Virus record (IMG/VR): IMGVR_UViG_3300043411_001575
Span: 64,001-128,000 of that record
Source: a virus
DNA length: 64,000 nt
Strand: one strand, 5' to 3'
Both the position numbers and the translations under genes were made by a program. The notes under the pieces are model-generated. The model was not told where the DNA came from. It saw only the letters and a program-made list of their open reading frames with translations, and made no database searches. How positions within the stretch are numbered: the stretch's first letter is position 1; each line of letters begins with the position of its first letter. Below are positions 13,254 to 52,572 of this stretch, one piece after another.

Positions 13254-13383
13254 GCGATGGTAGGTAAATCGAAGCCGAAATTTGAATTTATTACAAATGT
13301 TTAATCAAGGCACTAATATTGAATTTTGCACGTCAGCCCCACTATTGCAAAACCGATGTTATAAGCCGTTTTTATTTTAAATT

Positions 13384-13758
13384 ATGGAAGTTACATATTA
13401 TCAATTCTGTAAAACAATAGCTGATGATTTAAAAATTGAGTTAAATCAAAAGCATAAAACTAAATTAAGTCAATTTCCAATAAAAAATGGAAAAAGAAAA
13501 ATCAATTCTTTTCACGATGCTATAATTGTAGATTCTAATGGAAATGAATATCCATATATGCTGGGGCAAACAATTAGGAACGAAGAAAAATTAATTGATT
13601 TTGATTACATATACATTACACTACCAAAAGGATTAGAACAAATATTAAAAGAAACTGGAATTAATTTAAAGTCAGAAAAATGCAAAATTTGTGAAGGTGG
13701 TGGATGGTACAGTCAAGGAACAAGGTATTTTTATAAAGATATTTCTTGTGAAGTGTAG
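13384..13758 (+). CDS. Cassette hypothetical protein
   Basis: Fills unit 13358-13780. Confidence 0.65.
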   Translation: MEVTYYQFCKTIADDLKIELNQKHKTKLSQFPIKNGKRKINSFHDAIIVDSNGNEYPYMLGQTIRNEEKLIDFDYIYITLPKGLEQILKETGINLKSEKCKICEGGGWYSQGTRYFYKDISCEV

Positions 13759-13817
13759 TCGTTCTAAAATGGCTTATAACGTATGGTGCTATACTTAGTG
13801 CCGATTTATGAAAACGA

Positions 13818-14882
13818 ATGTTAATTATTAAAAACAAAAAGATGTTAAAAAACGAAATAACCGAGAATGAGGCATTGAGTATAGCACGTGTTAGTGGCAG
13901 TACTTTTGTGAATGCTGATTGCTTCGATGTTTTTCCTTTTATTGAGGATAAATCAATTGATGCTATTATTTGCGATTTACCTTATGGAACTACTGCTTGT
14001 GCTTGGGATATAATAATACCTTTTGAGAAATTATGGAAAGAATATGATAGAGTTTTAAAAGACAAAGGAAGTATTATTTTGACAGCATCACAACCATTTA
14101 CAAGTATTTTACTTATGAGTAATTTAAAATGGTTTTCTCACGAATGGATTTGGGAAAAAGAAATGGGTAGCAATTTTATGTTAGCAAACAAGCAACCACT
14201 AAAAATACACGAAAGTATATTGGTTTTTAATAGACCAATAAATGAAGTGAAAAATGATTTTGGCAAATACTCGGATATTAGGGATTATTTTCAAGAAGAA
14301 AGAAAAAAAACAAATTTATCGTATAAAGAAATAAACGAAAAATGTTTTGGTAGTGCTTCAAATGGTGGTGGTATGGCTTCAAATATTTTAACGAGTTATA
14401 AGAAAGGTTGGAGTTTTCCAAGTAAAGAAAAATATGAAGCATTGCAAAAAATAGGTATTTGTAAAACTCCTTATAATGAATTGAAAAATGAATATTTAAA
14501 AGCATTTGAGATTGATAGAACATACAACCCTATAAAAACCGATGGTAAACCTTATGTAATTAAACAAGGTGGCGTTTCTGATGTTTACGGAAATAAAGAA
14601 AACAATATCACAACTGAAAATAACGGAGATAGATTTCCAACTTCAATTTTAAAAATCAAACGTGATAAAGAAAAAATACACCCAACAGCTAAACCGCTTG
14701 AACTTATGGAATACCTTGTTAAAACATATACCAACGAGGGCGACACGGTTTTAGATAATACAATGGGTTCAGGTACAACAAACTTAGCCTGTATCAAATT
14801 AAATCGCAAATCAATTGGAATAGAAAAGGAAAAACAATATTACGATGTGGCTGTTCGGAGGGCTTCGGAGTATTGCCACTAA
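13818..14882 (+). CDS. DNA methyltransferase, N6/N4 beta class, with ~100 aa insertion
   Basis: CDLPY, HPTAKP, LDNTMGSGTT; start lies in the hairpin (13818 or 13842). Confidence 0.9.
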   Translation: MLIIKNKKMLKNEITENEALSIARVSGSTFVNADCFDVFPFIEDKSIDAIICDLPYGTTACAWDIIIPFEKLWKEYDRVLKDKGSIILTASQPFTSILLMSNLKWFSHEWIWEKEMGSNFMLANKQPLKIHESILVFNRPINEVKNDFGKYSDIRDYFQEERKKTNLSYKEINEKCFGSASNGGGMASNILTSYKKGWSFPSKEKYEALQKIGICKTPYNELKNEYLKAFEIDRTYNPIKTDGKPYVIKQGGVSDVYGNKENNITTENNGDRFPTSILKIKRDKEKIHPTAKPLELMEYLVKTYTNEGDTVLDNTMGSGTTNLACIKLNRKSIGIEKEKQYYDVAVRRASEYCH

Positions 14883-15073
14883 CGTATGGTGCTATACGAA
14901 GGAGGCGATTATTAGCACTAAAGTTGATGCGGAGTACAAATGTTTGTTTAACCACAAATGTTTCTACGGAGTACCAAACCGCCTCTTTTGTATAGCACGT
15001 GTTACCTGCTGGTGTGGTTTATTTAGCAGGATTTTGATTTGAAAACGAATAGAAAATTTAAAAAGTTTTAGAA

Positions 15074-15319
15074 ATGGGAACACAAAAAATGTATGCAGTA
15101 GAATATAAAACGGATAGTAGTTCTACTTATGAAATATTTGAAAATTATGATGATGCCTTAGCGTTTGCTAATAGTAATGAAAATGCTATGTTTTTATTTA
15201 CGGCAGACTTTAATAAGGATAGAATTTATTTAGATGGCGAAACTTGGAATTATGATGATTTTGCCGACACTTTTATTAACCAAGAAACAATTGAAACTTA
15301 TGAAATATATGGGAAGTAA
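15074..15319 (+). CDS. Cassette hypothetical acidic protein
   Basis: ORF in unit 15001-16095. Confidence 0.6.
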   Translation: MGTQKMYAVEYKTDSSSTYEIFENYDDALAFANSNENAMFLFTADFNKDRIYLDGETWNYDDFADTFINQETIETYEIYGK

Positions 15320-16067
15320 GGCAAGATTTAGTAAAGATATTTTGCCGATAATATTAAAAGATAGAACAGTCGAACAATGGTATGTTGAACCATTTGCAGG
15401 AGGAATGAACGCTATTTGCGAAGTAGGTGGTAATAGACTTGCTAACGATAAAAACTATCACTTAATTGAAATGTGGAAAGGATTAGCAAACGGAATTAAA
15501 TATCCAACGGACATACCAAAAGAATTGTATAACCTTGCAAGAGATGTGTATAATGGCAGAGAAACAAGGTTTGAACATAAAATGAATATGGCTGACGATA
15601 TGGTAGGATGGATTGGTTGGATGGGTTCTGCAAATGGAAGATTTTTTGATGGTGGATATAGTGGGAAATCAAACACAAAAATTGGAACTGTCCGTGATTA
15701 CATTAAGGAAGCAATAAGTAATATTGAAAAGCAATTACCAAAGATGGCAGGTGTTAAATTTGAAAATAAAGATTATACCAAATTGGAAATTCCTAATTGC
15801 AGTATTATTTATTGCGACATTCCATATCAAGGAACAAAACAATATTCAACATCAAAAGATTTTAACCATTCTAATTTTTGGAATTGGTGTAGAGAAAAAG
15901 CAAAGCAAGGACATACGATTTTTGTAAGTGAATACAATGCACCTGATGACTTTGAATGTGTTTGGCAAAAAGAGGCAAAATCTTCTTTATCGGCAAACGG
16001 CAAAATCGGTGGCAATAAGTTGAGCGTGGAAAAACTTTTTAAATTTTCTCCCACAAATGTTCAATAG
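15300..16067 (+). CDS. DNA adenine methylase, D12/Dam-like alpha class
   Basis: MKYMGSK, YVEPFAGG, YCDIPY, FVSEY. Confidence 0.9.
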   Translation: MKYMGSKARFSKDILPIILKDRTVEQWYVEPFAGGMNAICEVGGNRLANDKNYHLIEMWKGLANGIKYPTDIPKELYNLARDVYNGRETRFEHKMNMADDMVGWIGWMGSANGRFFDGGYSGKSNTKIGTVRDYIKEAISNIEKQLPKMAGVKFENKDYTKLEIPNCSIIYCDIPYQGTKQYSTSKDFNHSNFWNWCREKAKQGHTIFVSEYNAPDDFECVWQKEAKSSLSANGKIGGNKLSVEKLFKFSPTNVQ

Positions 16068-16236
16068 TAGCACTATCGTAGCACTTGCAGGTAACAGACA
16101 AGGCTATATTCTCGTGCCGTTTTTCACGGCATGGAATTATAGCCGATGTTATGCAAGTGGGTTGGGTTGTGGGTGGCTCGTTTCAAAACTCTTTTTCTTA
16201 TTTTTTTAGGGAGGGATTTTTTATTTTCTTTTTTAC

Positions 16237-16917: not shown

Positions 16918-17070
16918 ATGAAACTATCTGTAACAGAATATGCAAAACAGCTTGGTGTAACTCGTCAGGCTGTTTTGTTACAGATTAAAGAAAAAAGGCT
17001 ACCAAAAAATGTTATAGTTGAAAAAATTGGTAATACTTATCTCTTATCTGTGCGTGGGCAAAAAAAATAA
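16918..17070 (+). CDS. Small HTH regulator, family copy 1 of 7
   Basis: MKLSVTEYAKQLGVTRQAVLLQIKEKRLP. Confidence 0.8.
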   Translation: MKLSVTEYAKQLGVTRQAVLLQIKEKRLPKNVIVEKIGNTYLLSVRGQKK

Positions 17071-17161
17071 GAAAAAGAGTTTTGAAATGTTGCATAACGT
17101 TATCTCGCTTGGCGAGGTTTGGGGTTGAAACCCTATAATTTCTAATTTAAAACAAAATATA

Positions 17162-17998
17162 ATGAACACCGATATAAACGAAAATCCCAAATCTTGCCAA
17201 ACGAGTGTTATGGTTAGTGCGGATTTGATTAACAAAATTCATAATGAAAACTGCCTTGAAACAATGGCGAAAATGCCTGATAATTTTATTGATTTAACTG
17301 TTACCTCACCGCCTTATGATGGATTAAGAACGTACAACGGTTATAGTTTTGATTTTGAAAGTGTCGCAAAAGAATTATACCGAGTTACTAAAGAGGGTGG
17401 TGTTGTAGTGTGGGTTGTGGGCGATGCAACAGTAAAAGGCAGTGAAAGTTTAACATCATTTAAACAAGCTATTTATTTCAAAGATATTGGGTTTTCTGTA
17501 GAAACTATGATTTATGAAAAGGCGCAATCTTGCTTTGGTAGTAACACCTATTATTTGCAGGCGTTTGAATATATGTTTGTTTTAACTAAAGGCACTAAAC
17601 CAAAAGCAATTAATCATTTACGTGACCGCAGAAATGAGCGTAGTGGCGTTGAGAGTATGGGAAAAGGAGGCTTAAATAAAAACGGCACTAAAACAGACAG
17701 GCATAAAAAAGAAATGCTCGAATATGGTAAGCGAAAAAATATATGGAAATACGGAGTGGGTGGAGGCAAGACGGGACATCCTGCGGTATTTCCTGAACAG
17801 CTCGCAAACGACCATATAATTTCGTGGAGCAATGAAAACGATATTGTTTACGATTGCTTTAGCGGAAGCGGAACAACTGCTAAAATGAGTATAATTAATA
17901 GCAGGCGATGGATAGCGTCTGAAATGAGTGCTGAATATTGCGATATTATAAAAGAACGTATTAAAGTAGATAAAGGTCTTTTTGAAAACGTATCGTAG
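17162..17998 (+). CDS. DNA methyltransferase, beta class (SPPY, N4-cytosine-like)
   Basis: TSPPY, HPAVFP, YDCFSGSGTT. Confidence 0.9.
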   Translation: MNTDINENPKSCQTSVMVSADLINKIHNENCLETMAKMPDNFIDLTVTSPPYDGLRTYNGYSFDFESVAKELYRVTKEGGVVVWVVGDATVKGSESLTSFKQAIYFKDIGFSVETMIYEKAQSCFGSNTYYLQAFEYMFVLTKGTKPKAINHLRDRRNERSGVESMGKGGLNKNGTKTDRHKKEMLEYGKRKNIWKYGVGGGKTGHPAVFPEQLANDHIISWSNENDIVYDCFSGSGTTAKMSIINSRRWIASEMSAEYCDIIKERIKVDKGLFENVS

Positions 17999-18156
17999 CA
18001 TTAACCATAACGGATGGTGCTATGAGCAGGTTTGCCTTGTAGAAATGTTCAAGTTACCGAAAATGTTATTGGCAAACTTGCTTATAGCACGTGTTATACG
18101 CTGGCACGGTAAATTCAGCAGAAACTTAATTTGAAAAACTAAAAGAAAAAATAAAA

Positions 18157-18735
18157 ATGAGCAAAGGAGATTTTACAACATTAGGAGCATCAGCACACTC
18201 AAAAGAAGAGCGTGAAGAAAATGACTTTTATGCAACAGACCCAAAAGCATTAGAGATATTCCTTGAACAAACAGGGATTGAATTGCGAAACGTATGGGAA
18301 TGTGCTTGTGGAGAAGGGCATTTGGCAAAAGTATTAGATGCAAGAGGATTGCTTGGAAGAGCAAGTGATTTGATTGATAGAGGTTATGGAATAACGGAGA
18401 GTAATTTCTACTACTTTTCTGAAATATGGGAAGGAGATATATTAACAAATCCACCATACGGAGATGCTATGAAATTTTGCCAACACGCTCTTGATTGTGT
18501 GGATGAAGGAAGTAAAGTAGTGATGCTTATGCGTATTCAATTCTTAGAAGGGCAAAGACGTAAACCTTTTCTTTTGAAAAACCCGCCAAAGTATGTTTAT
18601 GTTAGCAGTAGCCGATTGTTACTCGCTAAAAACGCAGACTTTGTAAAGTACAACACACCTTCCGCTAATTGCTATGCGTGGTATGTTTGGGAAAAAGGAT
18701 TTAAAGGCGAAACTACTTTACGTTGGTTTAATTAA
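18157..18735 (+). CDS. Short phage-type N6-adenine DNA methyltransferase
   Basis: DFYAT, WECACGEG, TNPPY. Confidence 0.8.
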   Translation: MSKGDFTTLGASAHSKEEREENDFYATDPKALEIFLEQTGIELRNVWECACGEGHLAKVLDARGLLGRASDLIDRGYGITESNFYYFSEIWEGDILTNPPYGDAMKFCQHALDCVDEGSKVVMLMRIQFLEGQRRKPFLLKNPPKYVYVSSSRLLLAKNADFVKYNTPSANCYAWYVWEKGFKGETTLRWFN

Positions 18736-18877
18736 AAAGTGCGTGGGAAGATTTTTATTTTTTCTCTCACAAATGTTGAATCGAAGAACGAATGTAGTGC
18801 TTGCGTATAACGGCATCGGGCTTTGTGTCCGTTGGCGACTTAACCCACCAATGTTAAATTAAAAAACGAAACTTGAT

Positions 18878-19150
18878 ATGAGTACAAATGATGAATTGAA
18901 AAACGAAACCGCCAATGGCACAAAACCCGTGTTATCGGCTGGTTGGATTTCTGTAAAAGAGCAATTACCTGAATATTGGAGTCAACACCGAAATGATTAT
19001 GGAAGTGGTTACGTTCTTGGTTATACTAAATATGGTGAATGGGAAATAACTCAACTTTGGAATAATAAAGATTGGGAAGGTGATGATGACAATGAAGGTG
19101 ATTATATTACTCATTGGATGCCGTTGACCGTTCCACCAACTTGCCGATAA
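18878..19150 (+). CDS. DUF551-like phage protein
   Basis: WISVKEQLPE ... ITHWMPL. Confidence 0.7.
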   Translation: MSTNDELKNETANGTKPVLSAGWISVKEQLPEYWSQHRNDYGSGYVLGYTKYGEWEITQLWNNKDWEGDDDNEGDYITHWMPLTVPPTCR

Positions 19151-19222
19151 CGTATCGTGGCTTTGTTGTCGTTGTGGCTATTTAAGACCAAACTTAACAA
19201 ATAATAACTAAAAATTAAATTT

Positions 19223-19621
19223 ATGACTGAACTTTCAAAAAATGCCCAAGTGCCACAATGCGACAAAACCGCTGTTAGTGGCTGTGTTTTAGGATTACCT
19301 GAAATTGGAAAAACATATAATTGCTTTGATGATGGGAAAATAAGTAAAAGTAGAATGTATCAAGTTACAATAAGTGAAATAATCCCATTTGAAAAAGCCG
19401 ATAATGAATTGTTAGAATTATGGGAAGAAGAAGGATTACCGAGTTATTGGTTGTTTGAAAAAACAGATTATTTCATAAAATTTAAAAGTACAGAATTTAA
19501 AGACGAACCAAACGGAGTTTTTGCAAGAACTAAAAACGGTGGTTGGTTTGGTTTAGGGAACTATTGGAATAGTGGTAGATTAGATGTTGACGGCTCTTTA
19601 ACGCAAAGCTTGTCAACATAG
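19223..19621 (+). CDS. Cassette hypothetical protein
   Basis: Starts in the hairpin loop and fills unit 19274-19629. Confidence 0.65.
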   Translation: MTELSKNAQVPQCDKTAVSGCVLGLPEIGKTYNCFDDGKISKSRMYQVTISEIIPFEKADNELLELWEEEGLPSYWLFEKTDYFIKFKSTEFKDEPNGVFARTKNGGWFGLGNYWNSGRLDVDGSLTQSLST

Positions 19622-19850
19622 CCACTAACGGCATCCGTATAAGGGAAGTGCGAGGAACGAGCATTTACTTTATACGGTGTTAGCAAAGTGCGTTGGGCTG
19701 TGTGTTGGCTCGTTCCAAAACCATTTATTTTCTTTTTTTTGGGGAGGTTTTGAAAACTTTTTTACTAAAATACTTGCTAAATGACAATTTATATTTATCT
19801 TTGAACCATATTAACAATTAAAAAATAAAAACAATTAAAAAATAAAAACA

Positions 19851-20036
19851 ATGACAAAATTCGGAACAACAACTTGCCAATTTTACAACGGAACAGATTC
19901 AGTAACCGTAAATTCATCACTATTCAGAACCATTAGAGGTTGGGCTTCTACTGGTATTCCAAAAGATGCTATTAAAGGGGGAAGAAAGGTTTACGTTGCT
20001 AAAACAACTCTTGAACGCATTAAAAAAATTGCTTAA
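19851..20036 (+). CDS. Small cassette protein
   Basis: Lies between promoter and HTH gene. Confidence 0.6.
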   Translation: MTKFGTTTCQFYNGTDSVTVNSSLFRTIRGWASTGIPKDAIKGGRKVYVAKTTLERIKKIA

Positions 20037-20221
20037 TGAGAATTTCTGTAACTGATTATGCAAAACAGCTTGGTGTAACTCGTCAAGCTGTTTTGTTACA
20101 GATTAAAGAAAAAAGGTTGCCTAATAATGTTAAGTCTGAAAAAATTGGCAACACTTACTCTTTAACTGTGGGTGGGCAAAAAAAGAATAAAAATGCTTCC
20201 AATAAACTACAATCGAAGTAG
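20036..20221 (+). CDS. Small HTH regulator, copy 2
   Basis: SVTDYAKQLGVTRQAVLLQIKEKRLP. Confidence 0.8.
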   Translation: MRISVTDYAKQLGVTRQAVLLQIKEKRLPNNVKSEKIGNTYSLTVGGQKKNKNASNKLQSK

Positions 20222-20313
20222 TATCGTAGCAATGGGGCATAACGGTTTCGGGCTTGGCGAAGTGGCTGAACTCGAAGCTAAATAGGATTACTAAACTTTA
20301 AAATTAAAAACGA

Positions 20314-21135
20314 ATGTTAGATAGAATTACTGAACAGCCATTTTGCCAAACCCGTGTTATGTGCAGGGCGGTTGATAATCTTGAACTCCTTTTGTCGCAG
20401 CCTGATGAAAGTGTAGATTTGATTTATTGCGATATACTTTACGGAACAGGTAGAAATTTCAGTGAATATCAGGACTTGAAACCAATTAGAAGTGAGATTG
20501 AAAGCCACTACCTACCACGTTTTATCGAAATGAAACGAGTCTTAAAACAAAGCGGCACTATATACATTCATACGGGAGTAAACACTTCCCATTGGATTAG
20601 AAGTTTAATGGATGATGTTTTTGGGTATAATAATTTTCAAAATGAAATTATATGGTACTACAAAAATTCCGCATTGAAAGCTAAGTCAAATAAATTTAGG
20701 CAGAATACAGATACTATACTTTACTATGTAAAAGAAAAGGGTAAACATATTTGGAATGATGTTTACGAAAAGTGTAAACCTTATAAAAACTCAAAGCATA
20801 AATTTAATCCAATAACAAAAAAAGCTGAAAGGCAGAGAAATGAAAGTGGTAGAATTGAATACTTTATGGTAGATGAAAGGAAGTGCGATAACCTAATTCA
20901 GATAAATGCTTTAAATAGTAGTGAAAAGGTTGGTTACCCTACTCAAAAACCAAAGGAACTAATAAGCCGTTTTGTTTTAGCTTCTACGAATGAAGGGGAT
21001 GTAGTGGCTGATTATTATTTAGGTAGTGGCACAACCGCAGTAGTTTGTAAAGAACTAAACCGAAATTTTATAGGTTGCGACATTAATCCAAAGGCTATTG
21101 AAATAACAAATGCTCGTTTAGATGCAGTTTCGTAG
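20314..21135 (+). CDS. DNA methyltransferase, beta class, atypical DILY motif IV
   Basis: CDILY, NEIIWYY, YPTQKP, DYYLGSGTT. Confidence 0.85.
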   Translation: MLDRITEQPFCQTRVMCRAVDNLELLLSQPDESVDLIYCDILYGTGRNFSEYQDLKPIRSEIESHYLPRFIEMKRVLKQSGTIYIHTGVNTSHWIRSLMDDVFGYNNFQNEIIWYYKNSALKAKSNKFRQNTDTILYYVKEKGKHIWNDVYEKCKPYKNSKHKFNPITKKAERQRNESGRIEYFMVDERKCDNLIQINALNSSEKVGYPTQKPKELISRFVLASTNEGDVVADYYLGSGTTAVVCKELNRNFIGCDINPKAIEITNARLDAVS

Positions 21136-21412
21136 CCTTGCGCATAACGGTCGAGTATTGGCGAAGAAGCGGATTTATACCACCAAAGCCGATACGAAGC
21201 ACTACACTTGATTGACCTACAAATGTTCATACGAAGCACCGAAACCGCTTTTTTGCCAATACTTTGTTAGTGGCTGATGCGGATTTTTAGCACTCATTTT
21301 TAGTCAGTTAGAAAATATTTTGAAAATAGTTGAAAATAAATTTGGTTTGTATTGTTTTTGTATATACATTTGCATTACAATAATTAAGTAAAACAATTTA
21401 AAAACAAACAAA

Positions 21413-22207: not shown

Positions 22208-22422
22208 TGTAGCATTTGCCACTAACGGTTTGGTGTATGAGAAGGTTTGCTTAACTGAACTTTCAAATTACCACTAAACTTTATAACAAACTTTCTTATA
22301 CACCTTGTTATACACAGTACGGTTTATTAAGGTAAAATGTTAATACGAAGAACAGATAAAAACTTTTTAAAAATGTGCGATGGAAAAATTAATTTCAAAT
22401 ATTTATATATAAAGATAAAACT

Positions 22423-22728: not shown

Positions 22729-22851
22729 AAGGTTTTTACACAGAACTATGATTGAAACATGAATGTAGTATTGTGTATAACGGTTTTGGGCTTGGCGAAG
22801 TGGCTGAACCCGATGCTAAATAGAATTACTAAACTTTAAAATTAAAAACGA

Positions 22852-42975: not shown

Positions 42976-43716
42976 ATGTGGGATGGCAAATATGCTTTTG
43001 AAAAAAGCAAAATAATACAAGGAGATAGTTTGGATAAAATAAAATATATACCTAATGGCAGTATTGACTTAATTGTAACTGACCCACCGTATAAAATGAC
43101 GAAACAAGGTAATTCTTGCAGACCAAATTATATGAAAAGTGGAATGGGTGAAAACTTATTTGATGGTGAATTACCAAATACAAAAGAATGGATGAAACTT
43201 TGTTTTGATAAACTAAAAGACGATGCCCATTTCTATGTATTTACCAATATAAATAGTTTGCACGAATACCTTGATGTTGCAAAAGAATGTGGATTTAAAC
43301 TACATAATATTATAAGTATGATTAAAGATACCAAAATGCCTAATAGATGGTATTTAAAATACACTGAATTTGTATTGTTTTTTAGAAAAGGTAAAGCGTT
43401 TCCAATAAACGATATGACAAGTAGAGATTATGAATTTGTTGAAACACCAACATTAAAAAATGGCAAAATACATATATCACAAAAACCATTGAATTTTATT
43501 GAAAAACTAATAACAAATTCATCAAATGAAGGTGAAATATGTTTGGATTTATTTAGTGGAAGCGGAACACTTGCAGAAGCCTGTATAAATACAAATAGAG
43601 ATTTCATTATTATAGAGAAAAACCCAAATGACTTTGAAAAAGGCAAAGAAAGGGTGGGAAAAATTTTTAAAAATTATGGAATTAACATACAACCTTTAAT
43701 CGAAGCACAAATGTAG
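42976..43716 (+). CDS. DNA methyltransferase, beta class (DPPY)
   Basis: TDPPY, HISQKP, LDLFSGSGT. Confidence 0.9.
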   Translation: MWDGKYAFEKSKIIQGDSLDKIKYIPNGSIDLIVTDPPYKMTKQGNSCRPNYMKSGMGENLFDGELPNTKEWMKLCFDKLKDDAHFYVFTNINSLHEYLDVAKECGFKLHNIISMIKDTKMPNRWYLKYTEFVLFFRKGKAFPINDMTSRDYEFVETPTLKNGKIHISQKPLNFIEKLITNSSNEGEICLDLFSGSGTLAEACINTNRDFIIIEKNPNDFEKGKERVGKIFKNYGINIQPLIEAQM

Positions 43717-43910
43717 TGCTTGTACATAACGTTTTCGGGCTTGGCGAAGGTGGGCTTGTAGGATGCTCAATTTTAGCACAATGTGTCTGCCCACTTTTGC
43801 CAAACCCGTGTTATATGAAGTGCCGACTTATTAAGCAGAATTTTAAATTGAAACTATAAACAGAAAAACAAAAAAGAAAAAAAGCGTAGGGAATTTTAAA
43901 AACAAACAAT

Positions 43911-44177
43911 ATGGAAAAGAATTTTATTGAAAAAGCAGAAAAAGAAATTGGTAGAAAATTTGGTTTTTTCATCAGATGTGATGATAAAAACAAACCAACA
44001 GAAGTATTAACCGATATGTACTTTGAACTATGGGAAACAGAAAAGATGAACGAGATTTTATCTTTATGCGAAACACATAATCTTAAATACGATTTTGGTT
44101 TAGAAAGTTTTGATACCAAAATAGATGCTATTGAACAAGAAATATGTATTGTTTCAACTAATTGCGAAAATTCATAA
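43911..44177 (+). CDS. Cassette hypothetical protein
   Basis: Operon with the downstream MTase. Confidence 0.6.
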   Translation: MEKNFIEKAEKEIGRKFGFFIRCDDKNKPTEVLTDMYFELWETEKMNEILSLCETHNLKYDFGLESFDTKIDAIEQEICIVSTNCENS

Positions 44178-44178
44178 A

Positions 44179-44922
44179 ATGGAAGCAAATACGATTTACA
44201 AAGGCGATTGCTTTGAACTTATAAAGCAAATAACAAAAGCAGATAACGTCAAACTTATTATTACAGACCCACCATATTTACATAATAAAGGAGGTGGGAA
44301 AACATCGGGAACAGAGGGTAAAAGTTCAATAGCTAATAGCCCTATGTATAAATTCGATTCATTTATGATGGAAGATATGAGTTCTTTTTTAGAGGAAGAT
44401 GTTTATAATCTATTAGATGAATATAAAAGAATAATGACAAAATTAAACTGCTTTATATTTACTAATGACACTTTGATACCGTATTATACAATGTGGGCAG
44501 TTAAAAACAATAAAAAGTTTACAATTTTAACTTGGGAAAAACCATTGTCGATTTTAAACAGAAATAGATTTAGTCAGAATTTAGAATATGTTGTGAGGAT
44601 TTACGACAATGGAACTGCACTTAATTTAATAGATTTAGAAGCATATCCCGAAAAGAAAAACTACTACTCAAAAAACAGAAGGTTAAATTCGCCTACAAAT
44701 AAGATACACCCAACCCAAAAACCATTAGAATATCTACTTGGATTGATTGAGTTAAATACAAATGAAGGCGATTTAGTATTAGATACGTTTTTTGGTAGTG
44801 GACAAACAGGTAAGGCTTGTCAGATTTTAAATAGAAATTATATCGGTTTTGAAAGAGAAGAAAAGTATGTTGAATTATCAAATAAATATTTACAACAAGG
44901 ATTTGAAAAAACACTATTTTAA
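44179..44922 (+). CDS. DNA methyltransferase, beta class (DPPY)
   Basis: TDPPY, HPTQKP, LDTFFGSG. Confidence 0.9.
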   Translation: MEANTIYKGDCFELIKQITKADNVKLIITDPPYLHNKGGGKTSGTEGKSSIANSPMYKFDSFMMEDMSSFLEEDVYNLLDEYKRIMTKLNCFIFTNDTLIPYYTMWAVKNNKKFTILTWEKPLSILNRNRFSQNLEYVVRIYDNGTALNLIDLEAYPEKKNYYSKNRRLNSPTNKIHPTQKPLEYLLGLIELNTNEGDLVLDTFFGSGQTGKACQILNRNYIGFEREEKYVELSNKYLQQGFEKTLF

Positions 44923-45071
44923 AAGTGTGGTGGCTTTTTTCTTTTTGTTTTTCATTAACGGAACTTCAATTGGAAACGGTCAGCAAGGCATTTCATATAA
45001 CGTTCGAGGGCTTGGCGAAGTGGCTGAACCTGAAGCTAAATAGAATTACTAAACTTAAAAATTAAGAACGA

Positions 45072-45881
45072 ATGATTGATATAATTACTGAACAGCCATT
45101 TTGCCAAACCCGTGTTAGTGGCAGTACTTTTGTGAATGCTGATTGCTTTGATGTTTTTCCTTTTATCGAGGATAAATCAATTGATGCTATTATTTGCGAT
45201 TTGCCCTATGGAACAACTCAATGTAAATGGGATAGCATTATTAATTTAGATTTGATGTGGACGCAATACAACAGAATAATAAAAGATAACGGCATTTTTA
45301 TATTATTTGCAGATGAGCCTTTTACAAGCATATTAATAAATAGTAACATTAAAAATTTTAAGCAAAGAATAACTTGGGATAAACAAATAGCAGGAGGTCA
45401 TTTAAACGCTAAAAAAATGCTATTGAAAAGAACTGAGGATATATGCTTATTTTCAAATGTTAAAAATGGAAAATATACATACAATCCTATTTTAAAAGAT
45501 AAGGATTTTAAAAACATAAGAGATAGAAACGGAGAAAACAGAAAAGAGTTTAAAGGCGGTTATGTAGGGAAACACAATAGTACGTTGAGTAAAGAGCATA
45601 ACAATAAAAAAAGTTACCCAGATAATTTAATTTCCTTTTCAGCAAGAAAAGGCGATTGTAACCCTATAAATAGATTACACCCAACACAAAAACCACTTGA
45701 ATTGATGGAATATCTTATAAAAACCTATACTAATGAGGGCGATTTGGTTTTAGATAACACAATGGGTTCTGGAACAACAATTTTAGCTGCTATAAAAAAT
45801 AATAGAATTGGTATAGGAATTGAAAAGGAAAAACAATATTATGATGTCGCTGTTCGTAGGGCTTCGGAGTATTGCCACTAA
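45072..45881 (+). CDS. DNA methyltransferase, beta class
   Basis: CDLPY, HPTQKP, LDNTMGSGTT. Confidence 0.9.
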   Translation: MIDIITEQPFCQTRVSGSTFVNADCFDVFPFIEDKSIDAIICDLPYGTTQCKWDSIINLDLMWTQYNRIIKDNGIFILFADEPFTSILINSNIKNFKQRITWDKQIAGGHLNAKKMLLKRTEDICLFSNVKNGKYTYNPILKDKDFKNIRDRNGENRKEFKGGYVGKHNSTLSKEHNNKKSYPDNLISFSARKGDCNPINRLHPTQKPLELMEYLIKTYTNEGDLVLDNTMGSGTTILAAIKNNRIGIGIEKEKQYYDVAVRRASEYCH

Positions 45882-45952
45882 CGTTATCGGGCTTGGCGAA
45901 GTGGCTGAACCCGAAGCTAAATAGAATTACTAAACTTAAAAATTAAAAACGA

Positions 45953-46711
45953 ATGTCAAATAGAATTACAGAACAGCCATTTTGCCAAACCAGTGTTAGT
46001 GGCAGTACTTTTGTAAATGCTGATTGCTTTGATGTTTTTCCTTTTATTGAGGACAAATCAATTGATGCTATTATTTGCGATTTGCCTTATGGAACTACTG
46101 CTTGTAAGTGGGATACAATTATACCATTTGAGCCGCTATGGGAGCAGTACAAGCGAGTGATTAAACCTAATGGTGCGATAGTGCTGTTTAGCAAAGAGCC
46201 ATTTACGTGCATATTGAGAACAAGTGAAATTAAAATTTTTAAGCAACCTCTTATTTGGGATAAGGTTAATTCAGATAACCCTATGCAGGCAAAAAGAAGA
46301 CATCTAAACACTACGGAGGATATTTCTATCTTTTACAAATCTCAATGTACTTATAACCCACAAGGTCTTATAAAGTCAAATATAAAAAAGGGAGGGAAGC
46401 AAGGGATAATGATTGATAGTAGTGGTAAGGAAAAAGAACAATATATTCAAGAGAATACCAATTATCCGAAAAATATATTAGTGTACCCGATAGAAAGAAA
46501 GGCGGTTCATCCAACTCAAAAACCCGAAGCACTCCTGCAATACTTAGTCAAAACCTACACTAACGAAGGCGATATAGTCTTAGATAACTGTATGGGTTCA
46601 GGTACAACAAATCTTGCTTGTTTAAAATTAAATCGCAAATCAATTGGAATAGAAAAGGAAAAACAATATTACGATGTCGCTGTTCGTAGGGCTTCTGAGT
46701 ATTGCCACTAA
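45953..46711 (+). CDS. DNA methyltransferase, beta class
   Basis: CDLPY, HPTQKP, LDNCMGSGTT. Confidence 0.9.
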   Translation: MSNRITEQPFCQTSVSGSTFVNADCFDVFPFIEDKSIDAIICDLPYGTTACKWDTIIPFEPLWEQYKRVIKPNGAIVLFSKEPFTCILRTSEIKIFKQPLIWDKVNSDNPMQAKRRHLNTTEDISIFYKSQCTYNPQGLIKSNIKKGGKQGIMIDSSGKEKEQYIQENTNYPKNILVYPIERKAVHPTQKPEALLQYLVKTYTNEGDIVLDNCMGSGTTNLACLKLNRKSIGIEKEKQYYDVAVRRASEYCH

Positions 46712-46918
46712 CGGTATCCGTATAAGGGAAGTGCGAGGAACGAGCATTTACTTTATACGGTGTTAGCAAAGTGCGTTGGGATTGTGTGTCGGCTCGTTCC
46801 AAAACCATTTATTTTCTTTTTTTTGGGGAGGTTTTGAAAACTTTTTTACTAAAATACTTGCTAAATGACAATTTATATTTATCTTTGAACCATATTAATA
46901 ATCTAAAAACAAAACAAA

Positions 46919-47232: not shown

Positions 47233-47388
47233 ATGAAACTGTCTGTAACAGAATATGCAAAACAGCTTGGCGTAACTCGTCAAGCCGTTTTGTTACAAAT
47301 TAAAGAAAAAAGGTTGCCTAAAAATGTGAAGGTTGAAAAAATCGGAAATACTTATTCTTTAACTGTGGGTGGGCAAAAAAGAAAATAA
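47233..47388 (+). CDS. Small HTH regulator, copy 7
   Basis: MKLSVTEYAKQLGVTRQAVLLQIKEKRLP. Confidence 0.8.
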   Translation: MKLSVTEYAKQLGVTRQAVLLQIKEKRLPKNVKVEKIGNTYSLTVGGQKRK

Positions 47389-47533
47389 ATGGTTTTGGAA
47401 TGTTTGCTAACGTATGGTGCTATGAGCAGGTTTGCCTTGCAGAAATGTTCAAATTTAGCACTAATGTTATTGGCAAACTTGCTTATAGCACGTGTTAGCG
47501 GTAGTTTATTTTTCAAAAATTAAAATTAAAAAT

Positions 47534-47992
47534 ATGGGAACACAAGTAGTAGGAGAAAGTAACAGCGTTGAGTATAGCACTCCGTTGAAAATAGTACAGC
47601 CATTGATAAACGAATTTGGCTTAACAAGAGATGTTTGTGCAAGTGAATTAAACCACAAACTACCCGATTATTGGACAAAAGAAGATAATTCACTTGCTAT
47701 GAATTGGAAAGGTAATTGTTGGATGAACCCACCATTTAGCAGAGATTTGAATAAGTGGGTAAAGAAAGCGTGTAATGATGCTGAAAGGTTTGGAGGAACG
47801 AAAGTTTGTTTAATACCTGTAAGAAGCAATACAAAATGGTGGGCGGAAGTTTGTGTAAAAGCAGAAATTCGTTTTATCAATGGCGAAGTAAATTTTAATG
47901 ATGAAGAACGTGGACTTTGGTTGCCGATGTGTATTATCATTTTCGGTGAGAAGGCAAAGGTTGGCACGTTCTCTGTCTTAAATTACCGCTAA
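47534..47992 (+). CDS. Phage DNA N6-adenine methyltransferase (small phage Dam family)
   Basis: YSTP, DVCAS, WMNPPF, LIPVRSNTKWW. Confidence 0.85.
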   Translation: MGTQVVGESNSVEYSTPLKIVQPLINEFGLTRDVCASELNHKLPDYWTKEDNSLAMNWKGNCWMNPPFSRDLNKWVKKACNDAERFGGTKVCLIPVRSNTKWWAEVCVKAEIRFINGEVNFNDEERGLWLPMCIIIFGEKAKVGTFSVLNYR

Positions 47993-48120
47993 CGTTTTGC
48001 AGCTAACAGAAGGCGGCTTTTTAGCAAACTTAGTACTTGCCGCTTTTTGTTAGCTGCTGTTAGTGGACTGTTAAATTATTAAAAAAGAAAAAAGGAGGGG
48101 TGCGAGGGCATCTAAACATA

Positions 48121-48957
48121 ATGGACAAGAAGAAACTTTTAATTGCTTTTAGTGGTGGAGAAACATCTGCATTTATGGCTCAATGGTTATGGAAACATAA
48201 ACAAGGTGAATACGAAATGTTATTTGCTTTTGCTAATACTGGGGTTGAGAATGAAGAAACTTTAAACTTTGTGCATAAATGCGAAGTTGAATTTGGTATA
48301 AATGTTAATTGGTTGGAAGCAGTAATAGACCAAGAGAAAGGGAAAGGCACAAGGCATAAGATTGTTGATTACAAAACAGCAAGTAGAAACGGACAACCAT
48401 TTGAGGAACTGATAAAGAAATACGGTTTACCAAACCAACAGCGATTTCACTGCACAAGGGAGTTAAAAAATAATACATTGATTTCATTTGCAAAAAGTAT
48501 TTGGGGAAAGGAAAAGTATTATTTAGCAATAGGAATTAGAGTAGATGAATTTGATAGGATGAATGATAAATTTAAAGAGTTGAGAATTGTTTATCCGTTA
48601 ATTTCAGAAATTCCAATGACAAAGCCAAAGATTAATTTTTGGTGGAAACAACAACCGTTTAGATTAGAATTAAAAGGTTATCAAGGGAATTGTGTTACTT
48701 GCTACAAAAAAAGTGATAAAAAATTGTTTCAGATAGCTAAAGAAAATCCAAGTGCATTTGATTTCTTTGATAGAATGGAAGAACAATATGGAGAAGGTAA
48801 GTATCAATTTTTTAGGCAGAACCGAACAGCTAAACAAATTATGGAACAAGCTAAAGAATGGAATGGCAATGTAACCGATGACGCACAAAATGTTACAATA
48901 CAAACAGATTTATTTAGCGAAAGTTGTGAAGCATTTACAAGCGATTGCGGTGTTTAA
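48121..48957 (+). CDS. PAPS reductase-like (PP-loop) protein
   Basis: FSGGETS, FANTG.E, CTRELK, GIRVDE, GNCVTC. Confidence 0.8.
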   Translation: MDKKKLLIAFSGGETSAFMAQWLWKHKQGEYEMLFAFANTGVENEETLNFVHKCEVEFGINVNWLEAVIDQEKGKGTRHKIVDYKTASRNGQPFEELIKKYGLPNQQRFHCTRELKNNTLISFAKSIWGKEKYYLAIGIRVDEFDRMNDKFKELRIVYPLISEIPMTKPKINFWWKQQPFRLELKGYQGNCVTCYKKSDKKLFQIAKENPSAFDFFDRMEEQYGEGKYQFFRQNRTAKQIMEQAKEWNGNVTDDAQNVTIQTDLFSESCEAFTSDCGV

Positions 48958-49088
48958 CCTTTTCACAGTTTTGAAAAAACTGAAAGAGTGCGTGGGCTTT
49001 TTCTTTTTTAATAATTTAATTGCCACTAACGGTTCGCAGGTATATTTAGTTGCGGACTTAGTAACACAAAACTTTAAATTTAGAAGAA

Positions 49089-49445
49089 ATGAAGAAAGAA
49101 GAACAAAACTCGAATGAACCACAAAAACCGCAATTGAATATACCTGCTGTTAGTTGCAGTGTTGTTCATTGCAAGAAAGCACCTTATGATGTTTATATTG
49201 GAAGACCAAGCAAATGGGGTAATCCATTCACACACATAAAAGACGGTAAAACACTTGCAAAACATATTGTAGGTAGTAGAGATGAAGCAGTCGAAGCATA
49301 TCTTGAATGGATTACCAACGGAGAAGGTAAACATTTGATGAGTGATTTACACGAATTGAAAGATAAGGTGCTTGGTTGTTGGTGTCATCCACAATCTTGT
49401 CACGGAGATGTACTTTCGGAGTTGGTTGCTAAACATTGCAACTAA
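49089..49445 (+). CDS. DUF4326-like protein
   Basis: VYIGRPSKWGNPF, LGCWCHPQSCHGDVL. Confidence 0.8.
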   Translation: MKKEEQNSNEPQKPQLNIPAVSCSVVHCKKAPYDVYIGRPSKWGNPFTHIKDGKTLAKHIVGSRDEAVEAYLEWITNGEGKHLMSDLHELKDKVLGCWCHPQSCHGDVLSELVAKHCN

Positions 49446-49488
49446 CGTTTTGCAGGTATATTTAGTGCCGAATTTAAAAACGAAAAAT

Positions 49489-49791
49489 ATGAATTTTATA
49501 CAAAAGTTATTTAAAAGCAGAAAGGTTAATGAACCGATGAACTCGGCATTGAATATACCTGTTGTTATACCTCGTTTATCTTCTGATTGGATAAAATTTG
49601 AGGATGAAAAACCACCACACGAAGTAGTATTAGCTGCTTGCGATACTTATGATTGTGGATGGACTATGGATACTGTTTGGTGGTATGAAGATAAGCAATG
49701 TTGGATGGTTACTGGTGCAGTTAAAAGTACAGAAGCACATTTACCATACACACATTGGCGTAAATTACCACCATTTCCAAATGAGGTATAA
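49489..49791 (+). CDS. DUF551-like phage protein
   Basis: WIKFEDEKPP ... THWRKLP; ATG in the hairpin loop. Confidence 0.65.
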   Translation: MNFIQKLFKSRKVNEPMNSALNIPVVIPRLSSDWIKFEDEKPPHEVVLAACDTYDCGWTMDTVWWYEDKQCWMVTGAVKSTEAHLPYTHWRKLPPFPNEV

Positions 49792-49978
49792 CGTATTGGT
49801 GCTATACGAAGGAGGCGATTATTAGCACTAAATTTGATGCGGAGTACAAATGTTTGTTTAACCACAAATGTTTCTGCGGAGTACCAAACCGCCTCTTTTG
49901 TATAGCACGTGTTATACGCTGGCACGGTTGATTAAACGAGAAACTTAAATTGAAACACAAAACAAAATTTTTATTAAA

Positions 49979-50764
49979 ATGAGCGAGGGCAAAAAAGAAA
50001 TATTATTAGGAGATTGTTTGGAACTTATGAAGGATATACCAAACGGAAGTATTGATATGATACTTTGTGATTTACCATACGGAACAACTGCTTGTAAATG
50101 GGATAGTGTAATACCTTTTGAACCACTTTGGAAAGAATATGAAAGGATTATAAAGACCAATGGTGCTATTTTATTGTTTGGAACACAACCATTCACAACA
50201 GAACTAATATTGAGCAATAGAAAATTGTTTAAGTATGATATGGTTTGGTGCAAAGACAAACCTGCTGACTTCGGAAATGGCAATATAAAACCATTAAGAT
50301 ACCACGAAACAATTTGTGTATTTTATACCAAAACGCCAACATACAATAAGCAATTTGAAAGCAGAAAAGGAACTGGCTATTCAAGGGCTAAATATCCTGT
50401 AAATTACATAAACAATTCAGAGCATAAATTTGGAATGAAAGATGGTTCTTTTGATTATGCAAATAAAGACAGAATGATTGGAACTGTAATAGATATTACA
50501 ACTGGTGCAAGAGGTAGCATAAAACACCCAACAGTAAAGCCCGTTCCTTTATTTGAACATTTAATCAAAACATATACCAACGAAGGTGAATTGGTTTTAG
50601 ATAATACAGCAGGAAGCGGAACAACTGCAATTGCTTGTTTGAATACTAAAAGGCAATTTATAGTAATGGAAAAAGAACAAAAGTATTACGATATGATTTT
50701 AAAAAGGGTGGGAGATTTTAATAAAAATTTTGAACCGCAAACTCTCTTTGGAAACGAAATGTAG
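49979..50764 (+). CDS. DNA methyltransferase, beta class
   Basis: CDLPY, HPTVKP, LDNTAGSGTT. Confidence 0.9.
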   Translation: MSEGKKEILLGDCLELMKDIPNGSIDMILCDLPYGTTACKWDSVIPFEPLWKEYERIIKTNGAILLFGTQPFTTELILSNRKLFKYDMVWCKDKPADFGNGNIKPLRYHETICVFYTKTPTYNKQFESRKGTGYSRAKYPVNYINNSEHKFGMKDGSFDYANKDRMIGTVIDITTGARGSIKHPTVKPVPLFEHLIKTYTNEGELVLDNTAGSGTTAIACLNTKRQFIVMEKEQKYYDMILKRVGDFNKNFEPQTLFGNEM

Positions 50765-50848
50765 TGCTTGCGTATAACGGTATCGGGCTTGGCGAAGTGG
50801 CTGAACCGAATGTTTGATAGAAGCACAAAACTTAATAATTAAAAACGA

Positions 50849-51643
50849 ATGATTGATAGAATTACTGAACAGCCATTTTGCCAAACCCGTGTTATGTGCA
50901 GGGCGGTTGATAACCTTGAACTCCTTTTGTCGCAACCTGATGAAAGTGTAGATTTGATTTACTGTGATATTCTTTATGGAACGGGTAGGAATTTCGGTGA
51001 TTACCAAGACTTAAAACCAATTAGAAGCGAAATAGAAAGCCACTACCTACCAAGACTTATTGAAATGAAACGAGTTTTAAAAAGTACAGGTAGTATTTAT
51101 TTGCAAATGGATACACGAATAAACCATTGGATGCGCATTTTGATGGATGATGTTTTTGGGTATGAAAATTTCCGCAATGAAATAGTATTTGGATATAATG
51201 GGGGTGGTGTTTCAAAGAATTGTTATCCTAAAAAACACGACATAATCTTGTTTTATTCTGTTAGTGATAAATACTATTTTAATAACGAAAAGAAACCATA
51301 CTCCGCTTTAAGTTCACAAAACTTATTGTGGAAACATAGGAATAAAAAAAGACTTGATGAACTTAATGATGGCACACCTGTAACCGATGTATGGACTGAT
51401 TTGAAGTTTAAAATAAATTACCAAGAGGAAGAATATACAGGATATGCTACCCAAAAAACAAAAGAATTATTGAGCCGTATTGTTTTAGCTTCCACAAATG
51501 AAGGCGATACAGTTGCAGATTATTATTTAGGTAGTGGCACAACGGCAGTAGTTTGTAAGGAACTGAACCGAAATTTTATAGGTTGCGATATTAATCCAAA
51601 AGCTATTGAAATAACAAATGCTCGTTTAGATGCACTTTCGTAG
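50849..51643 (+). CDS. DNA methyltransferase, beta class, atypical DILY motif IV
   Basis: CDILY, YATQK, DYYLGSGTT; paralog of 20314. Confidence 0.85.
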   Translation: MIDRITEQPFCQTRVMCRAVDNLELLLSQPDESVDLIYCDILYGTGRNFGDYQDLKPIRSEIESHYLPRLIEMKRVLKSTGSIYLQMDTRINHWMRILMDDVFGYENFRNEIVFGYNGGGVSKNCYPKKHDIILFYSVSDKYYFNNEKKPYSALSSQNLLWKHRNKKRLDELNDGTPVTDVWTDLKFKINYQEEEYTGYATQKTKELLSRIVLASTNEGDTVADYYLGSGTTAVVCKELNRNFIGCDINPKAIEITNARLDALS

Positions 51644-51649
51644 CTTTGC

Positions 51650-51702
51650 ACATAACGTGTATTTAATGGAATGGAGTGTCAAAATCAATTAGTTACATAA
51701 TA
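51650..51702. other. Putative attI-like site
   Basis: The last TAAC core (51656) is followed by no hairpin; the integrase ATG lies 46 bp downstream. Confidence 0.5.
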
Positions 51703-52572
51703 ATGGAAGATAAAATTAACAAATTAAGGAGGGAGTTATCCATAAGGAAATATGCTCCTAATACAGTTGAAACATATTGTTCATGTCTTAAAGTTATTTT
51801 TAGTAAATGTGGAATTAATCCAAGTATTGATTCTTTAAAGTCATATTTATTAACTATTGAAAATAGAAACTACCATAAACAAATAGTCGCTACATTCAGA
51901 AACTACTCTGAATTTGTATTAGGTATTAAATTATCTTTAAACGATGTTCCTTATCCTAGAAAACAAGAAAGTTTGCCTGAAATATATTCAGTTGAAGAGG
52001 TTTCTAAATTAATTAATATTCCTAAAAATTTAAAACATCAATCTATAATTTTTTTATTGTATGGATGTGGACTTAGAGTTAGTGAATTAATTAATTTAAA
52101 ATTAACTGATATAGATAGTGATAGAATGGTTGTTAACATCCGAAAAGCAAAAGGAAATAAGGACAGGCAAATAATGTTGGATGAATCTTTACTTAAATTA
52201 CTTCGTGATTATTACACTGAATATAAACCAATAAATTATTTATTCAATGGTCAAAAAAAAGACCAATATAGTGACAGGTCTGTAAATGAACTTCTTAAAT
52301 ATTGGTCTAAAAAAGCAGGTATAAAAAAACATATTCATGCTCATTTATTAAGGCATTCATTCGCTACCCATCTTTTAGATGCAGGAATAGACATGGCTAT
52401 AATTCAAAAGTTATTAGGTCATTCAAACATAAAAACAACGCAAATTTATGCAAAAATTTCAACCAAATTAATATCTCAAATTAAATCTCCATTATCAAAC
52501 ATTAAAATCAATTCAAATGAAAAATCTAGTAATATTATTCCTTTGTGGAATTCTGATAGGTTTCCAAACTAA
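51703..52572 (+). CDS. Tyrosine recombinase, integron-integrase-like without the IntI insertion
   Basis: N-terminal SAM-like domain (RKYAPNTVETY); GLRVSE, KAKGNKDR, HLLRHSFATH, LLGH, TQIY. Confidence 0.92.
   Translation: MEDKINKLRRELSIRKYAPNTVETYCSCLKVIFSKCGINPSIDSLKSYLLTIENRNYHKQIVATFRNYSEFVLGIKLSLNDVPYPRKQESLPEIYSVEEVSKLINIPKNLKHQSIIFLLYGCGLRVSELINLKLTDIDSDRMVVNIRKAKGNKDRQIMLDESLLKLLRDYYTEYKPINYLFNGQKKDQYSDRSVNELLKYWSKKAGIKKHIHAHLLRHSFATHLLDAGIDMAIIQKLLGHSNIKTTQIYAKISTKLISQIKSPLSNIKINSNEKSSNIIPLWNSDRFPN

Follow-up and report, generated by a model that had tools for sequence, protein, structure and literature searches.

A probable integron-like gene-capture platform with an Xer-like recombinase in a phage genome

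How does a virus come to hold about 50 gene units in a single row, each set apart from the next by a hairpin, and which part of such a row is exchanged? The question is raised by a stretch of 64,000 nucleotides (hereafter the window), which comprises bases 64,001-128,000 of one IMG/VR virus record (IMGVR_UViG_3300043411_001575; 169,658 bp, classed as linear, with a CheckV completeness estimate of 82%) and carries a cassette array of ~38 kb. A preliminary description, made from the letters of the window, had proposed a phage-borne, non-canonical integron. This proposal is supported by the virus record itself, to which the whole contig belongs, by a recombinase that is not an integron integrase (IntI), by cassette boundaries at AAC, and by a cargo of DNA methyltransferases. 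We consider it probable (~0.8) that the locus is a phage-borne, integron-like platform for gene capture, in which modules of an attC-like site with its gene(s) are exchanged by an Xer-like recombinase.

Hairpin sites and the exchangeable module

Each unit of the array opens with GTTR and closes with YAAC. Between units, AAC and a G are followed by four bases; a stem of ~20 bp then encloses a loop of 20-90 nt, and after its return arm come a single base, a T and GTT. A simple hairpin scan (at least 12 pairs) performed no better than chance (87 hits versus 41-66 in Markov controls), and a covariance model, R2, was used instead, first built from 15 sites of the window and then rebuilt from 45. 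R2 returned 47 full-length matches on the plus strand between positions 13,769 and 50,902 (E 3e-17 to 7e-5) and no match at E<1 on the other 106 kb of the contig; these matches, trimmed by 9 nt on each side and with AAC and GTT verified, give the site coordinates of Table 1. They bear out the alternation of unit and hairpin that had been described from the sequence, while the accompanying figure of 53 units is approximate: 48 units lie between strong sites, and ~53-55 cassettes are obtained when decayed sites are counted. Greedy chaining of units from GTT to AAC strayed in AT-rich stretches and was kept out of these counts. At the far end of the array, a possible degenerate terminal site was noted by eye; it is a weak candidate, missed by R2, and its hairpin is not the minimum-energy fold. 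A minus-strand AAC...GTT hairpin inside an open reading frame at 56,863-56,979, with 23 pairs in the crude scan, was rejected as lying outside the site family, being unrecognised by R2.

By length, the sites form three classes (55-71, 85-95 and 113-128 nt), and they share a conserved, strand-specific structure. In the alignment of 45 sites, 93.6% of cells are paired versus 65% after shuffling, and 18 of 25 pairs have changed on both sides. AAC, the G that follows it, the T before GTT, and GTT itself are invariant, and two G.T pairs recur in all 45 sequences, one formed by the G and the T that adjoin AAC and GTT, respectively, and the other lying within the stem. The minus strand of the same positions scores ~25 bits with R2 versus ~85 bits for the plus strand, and when folded as DNA the plus strand is the more stable in 44 of the 47 sites (mean -16.3 versus -13.3 kcal/mol, Wilcoxon p=5e-9). 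No Rfam family fits the array hairpins; the sole Rfam match over the window is a permuted transfer-messenger RNA (tmRNA).

The two ends of a unit are complementary to each other. Own-end complementarity of at least 9 bp is found in 41 of the 48 units (85%), versus 5.9% when ends of different units are combined and 6.4% when the ends compared face each other across a site. The stem formed by a unit's own ends is ~15 bp long almost everywhere, with position 11 always a G opposite T; ends that appear to pair over 9 bp have an extra mismatch at position 10, and their pairing resumes after this 2-nt interruption. The 15-nt and 9-nt examples of self-complementary ends given in the preliminary description are exact. 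The remaining seven units pair poorly and look composite. One of these (22894-24027) contains a decayed site at ~23,618-23,723, and another (19679-20243) starts like the cassette at 46762 and ends like the cassette at 39021-39629 (97%), so that it looks like a fusion of two cassettes from which the intervening site has been lost. Similar causes, i.e. decay or fusion, are expected for the others.

Shared similarity reveals what moves. Within the window, blocks of similarity begin at the AAC before a hairpin and continue through the hairpin into the downstream unit (e.g. 38094-38336 versus 44997-45239 at 96.7%, and 20239-20648 versus 50774-51183), and other blocks end at the closing AAC of a unit and are followed by differing hairpins (20036-20247 versus 39422-39633, 97%; 25763-25841 versus 48953-49031, 98.7%). 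The junction of hairpin and unit is spanned by 14 blocks within the window, and an AAC core, counted with 25 nt on either side, by none; in comparison with 48 other IMG/VR loci, the corresponding numbers are 53 for the junction and 6 for the core. Of the block starts in that comparison, 58% coincide with an AAC core, versus ~1.5% expected. Because of these boundaries, the mobile module is a hairpin together with the gene(s) downstream of it, with the crossover placed, to the precision that its invariant bases allow, in the 5'-side AAC-G. A crossover at AAC|G had been suggested beforehand, and cassette boundaries lie at AAC within the array, between contigs and between cultured isolates (see below). 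The hairpin had been called a palindromic spacer; it is present as described, but the block boundaries indicate that it travels with the downstream unit and is not a neutral spacer. Of the suggestion that the phage stockpiles and reorders cassettes, the stock is evident, but the changes seen are duplication and decay in this phage and turnover among relatives, not reordering.

The bond between site and gene is also visible in the reading frames. The ATG of the downstream gene lies inside 15 of the 21 long sites, with a frame that reads through the 3' arm and GTT, and inside none of the 17 mid-sized sites; the TAA of a TAAC core closes the last open frame in 12 units. When each site is rebuilt as it would be in an excised circle, from the unit's own end, the hairpin and the unit's own start, its folding energy is -24.9 versus -18.0 kcal/mol in the array, and the rebuilt form is more stable in 40 of 47 cases.

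Recombinase, leader and turnover among relatives

The array ends, as had been reported, at a tyrosine recombinase gene, which is the only one on the contig. Its product is not IntI, in keeping with the non-canonical character proposed for the system: the score against the integron integrase family TIGR02249 is 154.8 bits in two pieces (cut-off 265) and against PRK15417 107.8 (cut-off 435), and in alignment with IntI4 (2A3V) residues 169-195 of the query face chain residues 179-248, leaving ~43 residues of the IntI-specific insertion missing. Scores for the Xer families of NCBIfam also lie below the cut-offs (recomb_XerA_Arch, 206 versus 220 bits; XerD, 171 versus 330; XerC, 163 versus 335), and the best solved relative is Pyrococcus XerA (4A8E, E 3e-44). 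The residues of the RHR box and the tyrosine are visible in the alignment. Between the AAC of the last cassette and the recombinase gene lies a short attI-like leader, and leader and recombinase together occupy the insertion end of the array. Directly after the recombinase gene, an open reading frame of 253 aa (52634-53395) has no match in Pfam, NCBIfam or PHROGs and is not conserved beside related recombinases.

Three IMG/VR contigs encode recombinases 76-79% identical to that of the window. Similarity to the window at the DNA level is limited to the leader and the recombinase gene, its upstream edge lying at the last AAC or a few bases ahead of it; the leader is conserved in all three, and the adjoining cassette end differs in two. 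In one of them, seven sites with unrelated cassettes lie in the 3.6 kb upstream, and protein-level synteny revealed no flanking proteins common to the window and the related recombinase loci. These relatives keep the leader and carry other cassettes. An 18-mer of the leader found only these three contigs and chance hits in IMG/VR. The order of array, YAAC, leader of 45-60 nt and recombinase is kept at three further loci (L049 and L027, with recombinases 39-41% identical, and L140), and at every locus with a recombinase the gene stands at the same end and on the same strand, 45-60 nt after a cassette AAC.

The sites extend well beyond these relatives. A 16-mer from one hairpin class occurs in at least 116 IMG/VR stretches, and R2 identified 181 sites in ~54 of the 80 loci listed, many of them in rows of 5-11. 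In two of the three contigs with recombinases 76-79% identical, the sequence breaks off within ~120 nt of the recombinase gene on its upstream side; the start of a fourth contig with an array (G002, L090) falls inside that array, and most recombinase homologues in a large protein collection lie on contigs of 1-3 kb, which hints that assemblers break on repeated or heterogeneous arrays. Contigs that carry the recombinase (L020, L021, L090/L140) often have one of their ends at the array.

The case for mobility is strongest in the genome sequences of cultured phages that are distant relatives. The Polaribacter phages Freya and Leef encode integrases 31-37% identical to the recombinase of the window, with small co-oriented genes and weak R2 hits upstream. 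Over 43,978 bp, Freya_1 and Freya_10 align without a single mismatch or gap; they differ in a block of 4,942 bp directly upstream of the integrase gene, and R2 hits in Freya_10 are confined to this variable cassette region. Comparison of isolates 1, 2, 5, 6, 8, 9 and 10 shows that they differ by modules of 842, 902, 2,891 and 307 bp, with nested losses from the integrase side, an internal loss of the 902-bp module in Freya_8, and a novel module only in Freya_6, the one case in which insertion, as distinct from deletion, is suggested. Every junction examined lies directly after a YAAC core, and those proximal to the integrase abut the same leader (the integrase-side junction of Freya_2 was placed from record lengths only).

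These observations can be joined in one mechanism. A cassette would comprise an attC-like site and the one or few genes behind it, and would run from the G after one AAC to the next AAC. When the plus (coding) strand becomes single-stranded, each site could fold into its ~20-bp stem between AAC and GTT, and the adjacent Xer-like recombinase would cut within the 5'-side AAC. Exchange between sites would excise cassettes as circles, which would be inserted at the leader just upstream of the recombinase gene. In the circle, the two ends of a cassette would complete the 15-bp stem and so offer a better site than the hybrid sites of the array. We infer the recombinase as catalyst, the single-stranded substrate and the circular intermediates; the site family, its strand bias, the module boundaries, and the gain and loss of cassettes at AAC in cultured relatives are direct observations.

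A different account of the enzyme has to be weighed, in which the adjacent recombinase serves only as a lysogeny integrase, and exchange at AAC is carried out by XerC/D of the host, by an integron integrase of the host, or by the recombinase of a co-infecting phage. The paper describing the Freya phages takes the integrases of Freya and Leef as signs of temperate life and makes no mention of cassettes (PMC8776804), and arrays occur without any tyrosine recombinase in complete phage genomes. A homologue 48% identical to the recombinase lies on a 452-kb contig (L143) of a Flavobacterium sp. assembly (GCA_046293665.1), with phage-like genes after it. However, this homologue is again preceded by an array of eight sites, a 4.2-kb unit ending in AAC, and a leader. 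That unit (5724-9963) contains genes for a SulP sulfate transporter and an NhaA Na+/H+ antiporter between complementary GTT...AAC ends and looks like a multi-gene cassette of cellular-type genes, judging from its sequence. A search for the recombinase in bacterial and archaeal species genomes, by a method that reaches close relatives only, gave one unrelated match at 30%. Leader and recombinase are conserved jointly while cassettes and phage backbones differ, and the constant position and strand of the gene, as well as the Freya junctions that abut the leader, also count against this account. The phage of the window is large, and neither attachment sites nor any other sign for or against lysogeny came to notice, no search for attachment sites having been made. 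We therefore regard a role in lysogeny alone as unlikely.

Another account places the hairpins at the level of RNA, as processing sites, attenuators or elements of translation control within a static cluster of gene families. Their structure lies on the sense strand, their conserved pairs are compatible with G.U, and start codons fall within loops, all of which would suit such a role. Left unexplained by it are the complementarity of ends specific to each unit, the ending of similarity blocks at AAC, both inside one genome and in comparisons of genomes, and the precise gain or loss of modules in otherwise identical Freya genomes, and we give it hardly any weight as a replacement for recombination. 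The hairpins may nevertheless have an added role in RNA besides DNA recombination.

Several observations weigh against an integron-like platform served by its own recombinase. Two apparently complete phage contigs carry arrays without a tyrosine recombinase, as does phage P12002L, where R2 finds 12 hits around methyltransferase genes; in such arrays another enzyme may act in trans. The recombinase is without the insertion that in IntI contacts extrahelical bases, so that its recognition of hairpins is putative. The Freya integrase is 31.5% identical and the Freya sites score 24-44 bits, so that evidence is transferred from these phages over distant homology. A few shared blocks begin at GTT and not at AAC, and the G.T pairs of the coding strand would suit an RNA structure equally well.

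Methyltransferase cargo and phage context

The preliminary description had regarded the cargo as counter-defence genes, and 21 cassettes do carry distinct DNA methyltransferases, for which alone this role is proposed, from what is known of orphan phage methyltransferases. They were called with Pfam (PF01555, PF02086, PF05063 and PF05869), NCBIfam and PHROGs, belong to the classes N6_N4, D12, MT-A70 and Dam, and have a best paralogue identity of at most 65%; the weakest call (40751-41545) has no Pfam or NCBIfam family and only a partial match to a PHROG methyltransferase. No restriction endonuclease family was matched among the ~40 cassette proteins scanned. The 21 orphan methyltransferases most likely protect the phage genome against many restriction systems of its hosts. 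Other cassettes encode a PAPS-reductase-like protein, a DUF4326 protein, a protein matching a PHROG annotated as phosphoheptose isomerase, and many small proteins of no assigned function; a search of ten small cassette genes against Pfam and PHROGs gave the one DUF4326 match and nothing else.

A protein with a core of ~50 aa occurs in seven copies that are 82-90% identical (16918-17070, 20036-20221, 25190-25348, 29899-30063, 30736-30957, 39422-39607 and 47233-47388). In each copy its gene closes a multi-gene unit and stands immediately ahead of the AAC core. By eye the protein resembles an excisionase-type helix-turn-helix protein; it matched no Pfam family and no PHROG with a function assigned, and the PDB gave nothing significant.

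The contig has a GC content of ~31% and nearly all of its genes on the plus strand. A tail-fibre match, an HNH endonuclease, an RtcB ligase and the tmRNA support its phage character. The host is probably a member of the Bacteroidota; the best cultured matches of the recombinase are in Polaribacter phages, and Cellulophaga phages are also among the matches. A megablast search with the 13 kb upstream of the array found no match among cultured phages. Elsewhere in the window lie the permuted tmRNA gene (716-1002, minus strand; Rfam RF04321, 51.9 bits; ARAGORN tag peptide GEVKLAA), a gene (3231-4307) whose 358-aa product combines a DNA-binding domain of the excisionase family (TIGR01764) with weak sigma-70 region-4-like matches, and, ~9 kb downstream of the recombinase, a gene for a TnpB-family RNA-guided endonuclease (61757-62926; NCBIfam NF040570, E 1.5e-89).

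Table 1. Coordinates of the cassette array, its sites, cargo genes, leader and recombinase in the window
Feature	Position	Strand	Basis or remark
Cassette array	13358-51656	+	All genes on the plus strand
Possible degenerate terminal site	13217-13360	+	AAC-T in place of AAC-G
attC-like sites 1-8 (AAC start to GTT end)	13778-13892, 14881-15003, 16093-16150, 17096-17209, 18009-18095, 18809-18933, 19149-19276, 19627-19681	+	R2
attC-like sites 9-16	20241-20358, 21146-21268, 22224-22309, 22779-22896, 24025-24112, 24321-24445, 24688-24745, 25838-25922	+	R2
attC-like sites 17-24	26886-26945, 28362-28484, 29369-29428, 30118-30184, 30916-31002, 31928-32013, 32868-32956, 33429-33516	+	R2
attC-like sites 25-32	33739-33826, 34414-34473, 35307-35392, 36320-36414, 37321-37444, 38096-38213, 38938-39023, 39627-39714	+	R2
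attC-like sites 33-40	39951-40073, 40626-40712, 41570-41692, 42423-42535, 42826-42911, 43728-43812, 44999-45116, 45880-45997	+	R2
attC-like sites 41-47	46710-46764, 47409-47496, 47991-48061, 49028-49151, 49444-49566, 49790-49913, 50776-50893	+	R2
Decayed site	23618-23723	+	5' arm retained, 3' arm gone; 95.7% identical copy at ~25369-25475, also decayed
DNA methyltransferase genes 1-7	13818-14882, 15234-16067, 17162-17998, 18157-18735, 20314-21135, 22852-23619, 25997-26809	+	Pfam/NCBIfam/PHROGs
DNA methyltransferase genes 8-14	32085-32840, 33822-34403, 35433-36308, 36490-37308, 38169-38939, 40751-41545, 41621-42424	+	Pfam/NCBIfam/PHROGs
DNA methyltransferase genes 15-21	42976-43716, 44125-44922, 45072-45881, 45953-46711, 47492-47992, 49979-50764, 50849-51643	+	Pfam/NCBIfam/PHROGs
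PAPS-reductase-like (PP-loop) cassette gene	48100-48957	+	Pfam PF01507; phrog_424, E 9e-43
attI-like leader	51657-51702	+	Between the AAC of the last cassette and the recombinase ATG; conserved 47-nt
Xer-like tyrosine recombinase	51703-52572	+	289 aa from ATG; Pfam PF00589, E 2e-43

Comparison with integrons and Xer systems

By definition integrons have an IntI, and they are mainly known as devices in which bacteria store resistance and defence genes. With classical integrons (class 1; Vibrio cholerae, IntIA/IntI4 2A3V) the array shares promoter-poor cassettes separated by AAC/GTT imperfect palindromes, cassette-specific pairing of the two R boxes, strand-biased folding, and an insertion point beside the recombinase gene, and with the Vibrio repeats it shares near-identical families of sites in unrelated cassettes. 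Read on the strand opposite the genes, the layout also corresponds, with a divergent recombinase at the head, the leader (attI) next, and after it cassettes whose last elements are a site and G|TT; on this reading the plus strand of the window is the classical 'bottom' strand. The differences lie in the enzyme, the sites, the direction of the genes and the carrier. The classical recombinase has the IntI-specific insertion, whereas the 289-aa Xer-like protein is without it. The R stem is ~15 bp long with a fixed G.T, in place of the classical 7 bp, the spacers are of 5 versus 2 nt, and invariant G.T pairs stand where classical extrahelical bases would be expected, so that the description of the site geometry as unlike classical attC holds. 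The genes are antisense to the classical direction and point toward the recombinase, with the site 5' of the gene, where it can hold the start codon, and the element is borne by a phage, unlike classical integrons. Among the features that characterise IntI-based integrons, the locus therefore has attC-type sites, cassette-specific complementary ends and an attI-like leader beside the recombinase gene; it has neither the IntI-specific domain nor co-oriented genes with a Pc promoter at the integrase end.

With at least two attC sites in a row and a neighbouring recombinase that is not IntI, the array falls under the definition of a cluster of attC sites lacking an integron integrase (CALIN), a label that hides the cognate non-IntI recombinase. 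It could then be an ordinary integron fragment served by a canonical IntI elsewhere, with the local recombinase incidental. Sites of the AAC-G-N4 form have been published as attC of phage CALINs, and two of them, from Pseudoalteromonas phage PH101, recombined with attI1 under IntI1; P12002L_attC1, the one Polaribacter phage site of this form tried with IntI1, gave no verified recombinants (PMC9892861). Further points against such a fragment are that the contig is without IntI, its sole tyrosine recombinase reaching 154.8 bits against a cut-off of 265 and being ~43 residues short, and that genes antisense to the classical cassette direction could not be driven by Pc. We judge this explanation very unlikely.

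The nearest published counterparts are the 17 CALINs of 2-3 sites that Qi et al. (2023) reported in phages, including two methyltransferase cassettes in P12002L (PMC9892861). They share with the array a methyltransferase cargo and, in the primer for P12002L_attC1, the AAC-G-N4-stem-T-GTT form, but consist of 2-3 predicted sites with no dedicated recombinase and no attI, and were tested only with IntI1 in E. coli (PMC9892861). The window has 47 sites, ~50 cassettes and a cognate recombinase with a conserved leader, and natural gain and loss is seen in isolates. The array had been called the best candidate for an undescribed system; isolated sites of this form were already in print as phage CALINs (PMC9892861). 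A full-text literature search gave no account of such arrays together with a non-IntI recombinase encoded by a phage.

We lean, with less assurance than for the locus itself, toward a wider view in which phages of Bacteroidota own an integron lineage. This lineage would have an Xer-like recombinase without the IntI domain, a site that lies ahead of the gene and provides its start, a cassette-specific stem of 15 bp, with a fixed G.T, that marks the excised form, and an exchangeable, heritable library of anti-restriction methyltransferases shared among unrelated phage backbones and with host chromosomes. Such a lineage would either have arrived at the integron principle independently or be related to the ancestor of IntI. 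If the reading of the locus is correct, the IntI insertion is not required for cassette recombination at hairpin sites, which bears on the origin of integrons, and phages own a cassette store for counter-defence that mirrors the defence cassettes of bacterial integrons. This suggests that phages stockpile anti-restriction genes as bacteria stockpile resistance genes. In many flavobacterial phages, integrases now read as evidence of lysogeny might act as cassette recombinases, either in place of that role or in addition to it. With the Freya phages and their Polaribacter host, a cultured test system is at hand, and 21 distinct orphan methyltransferases in one genome form a panel for specificity mapping.

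Xer systems supply a precedent for the proposed chemistry. In the integration of the CTX phage at dif, host XerC/D, which are without the IntI insertion, act on a hairpin of single-stranded phage DNA, i.e. an Xer-type enzyme acts on a folded single strand. There, however, XerC/D are used once for a whole phage genome, with no cassette array and no phage-encoded enzyme. The pdif modules of Acinetobacter plasmids are likewise discrete gene modules bounded by Xer-type sites, but those sites are double-stranded, 28 bp long and alternating in orientation, whereas the sites of the array are hairpins of 55-128 nt in direct orientation and with strand bias. Membership of the locus in the Xer/dif systems is not indicated by a recombinase below the XerA, XerC and XerD cut-offs or by the long hairpins that form the sites beside its gene, no search for dif having been made. 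In its cassettes, its sites and its leader the array is integron-like, and it is not an integron in the sense defined by IntI.

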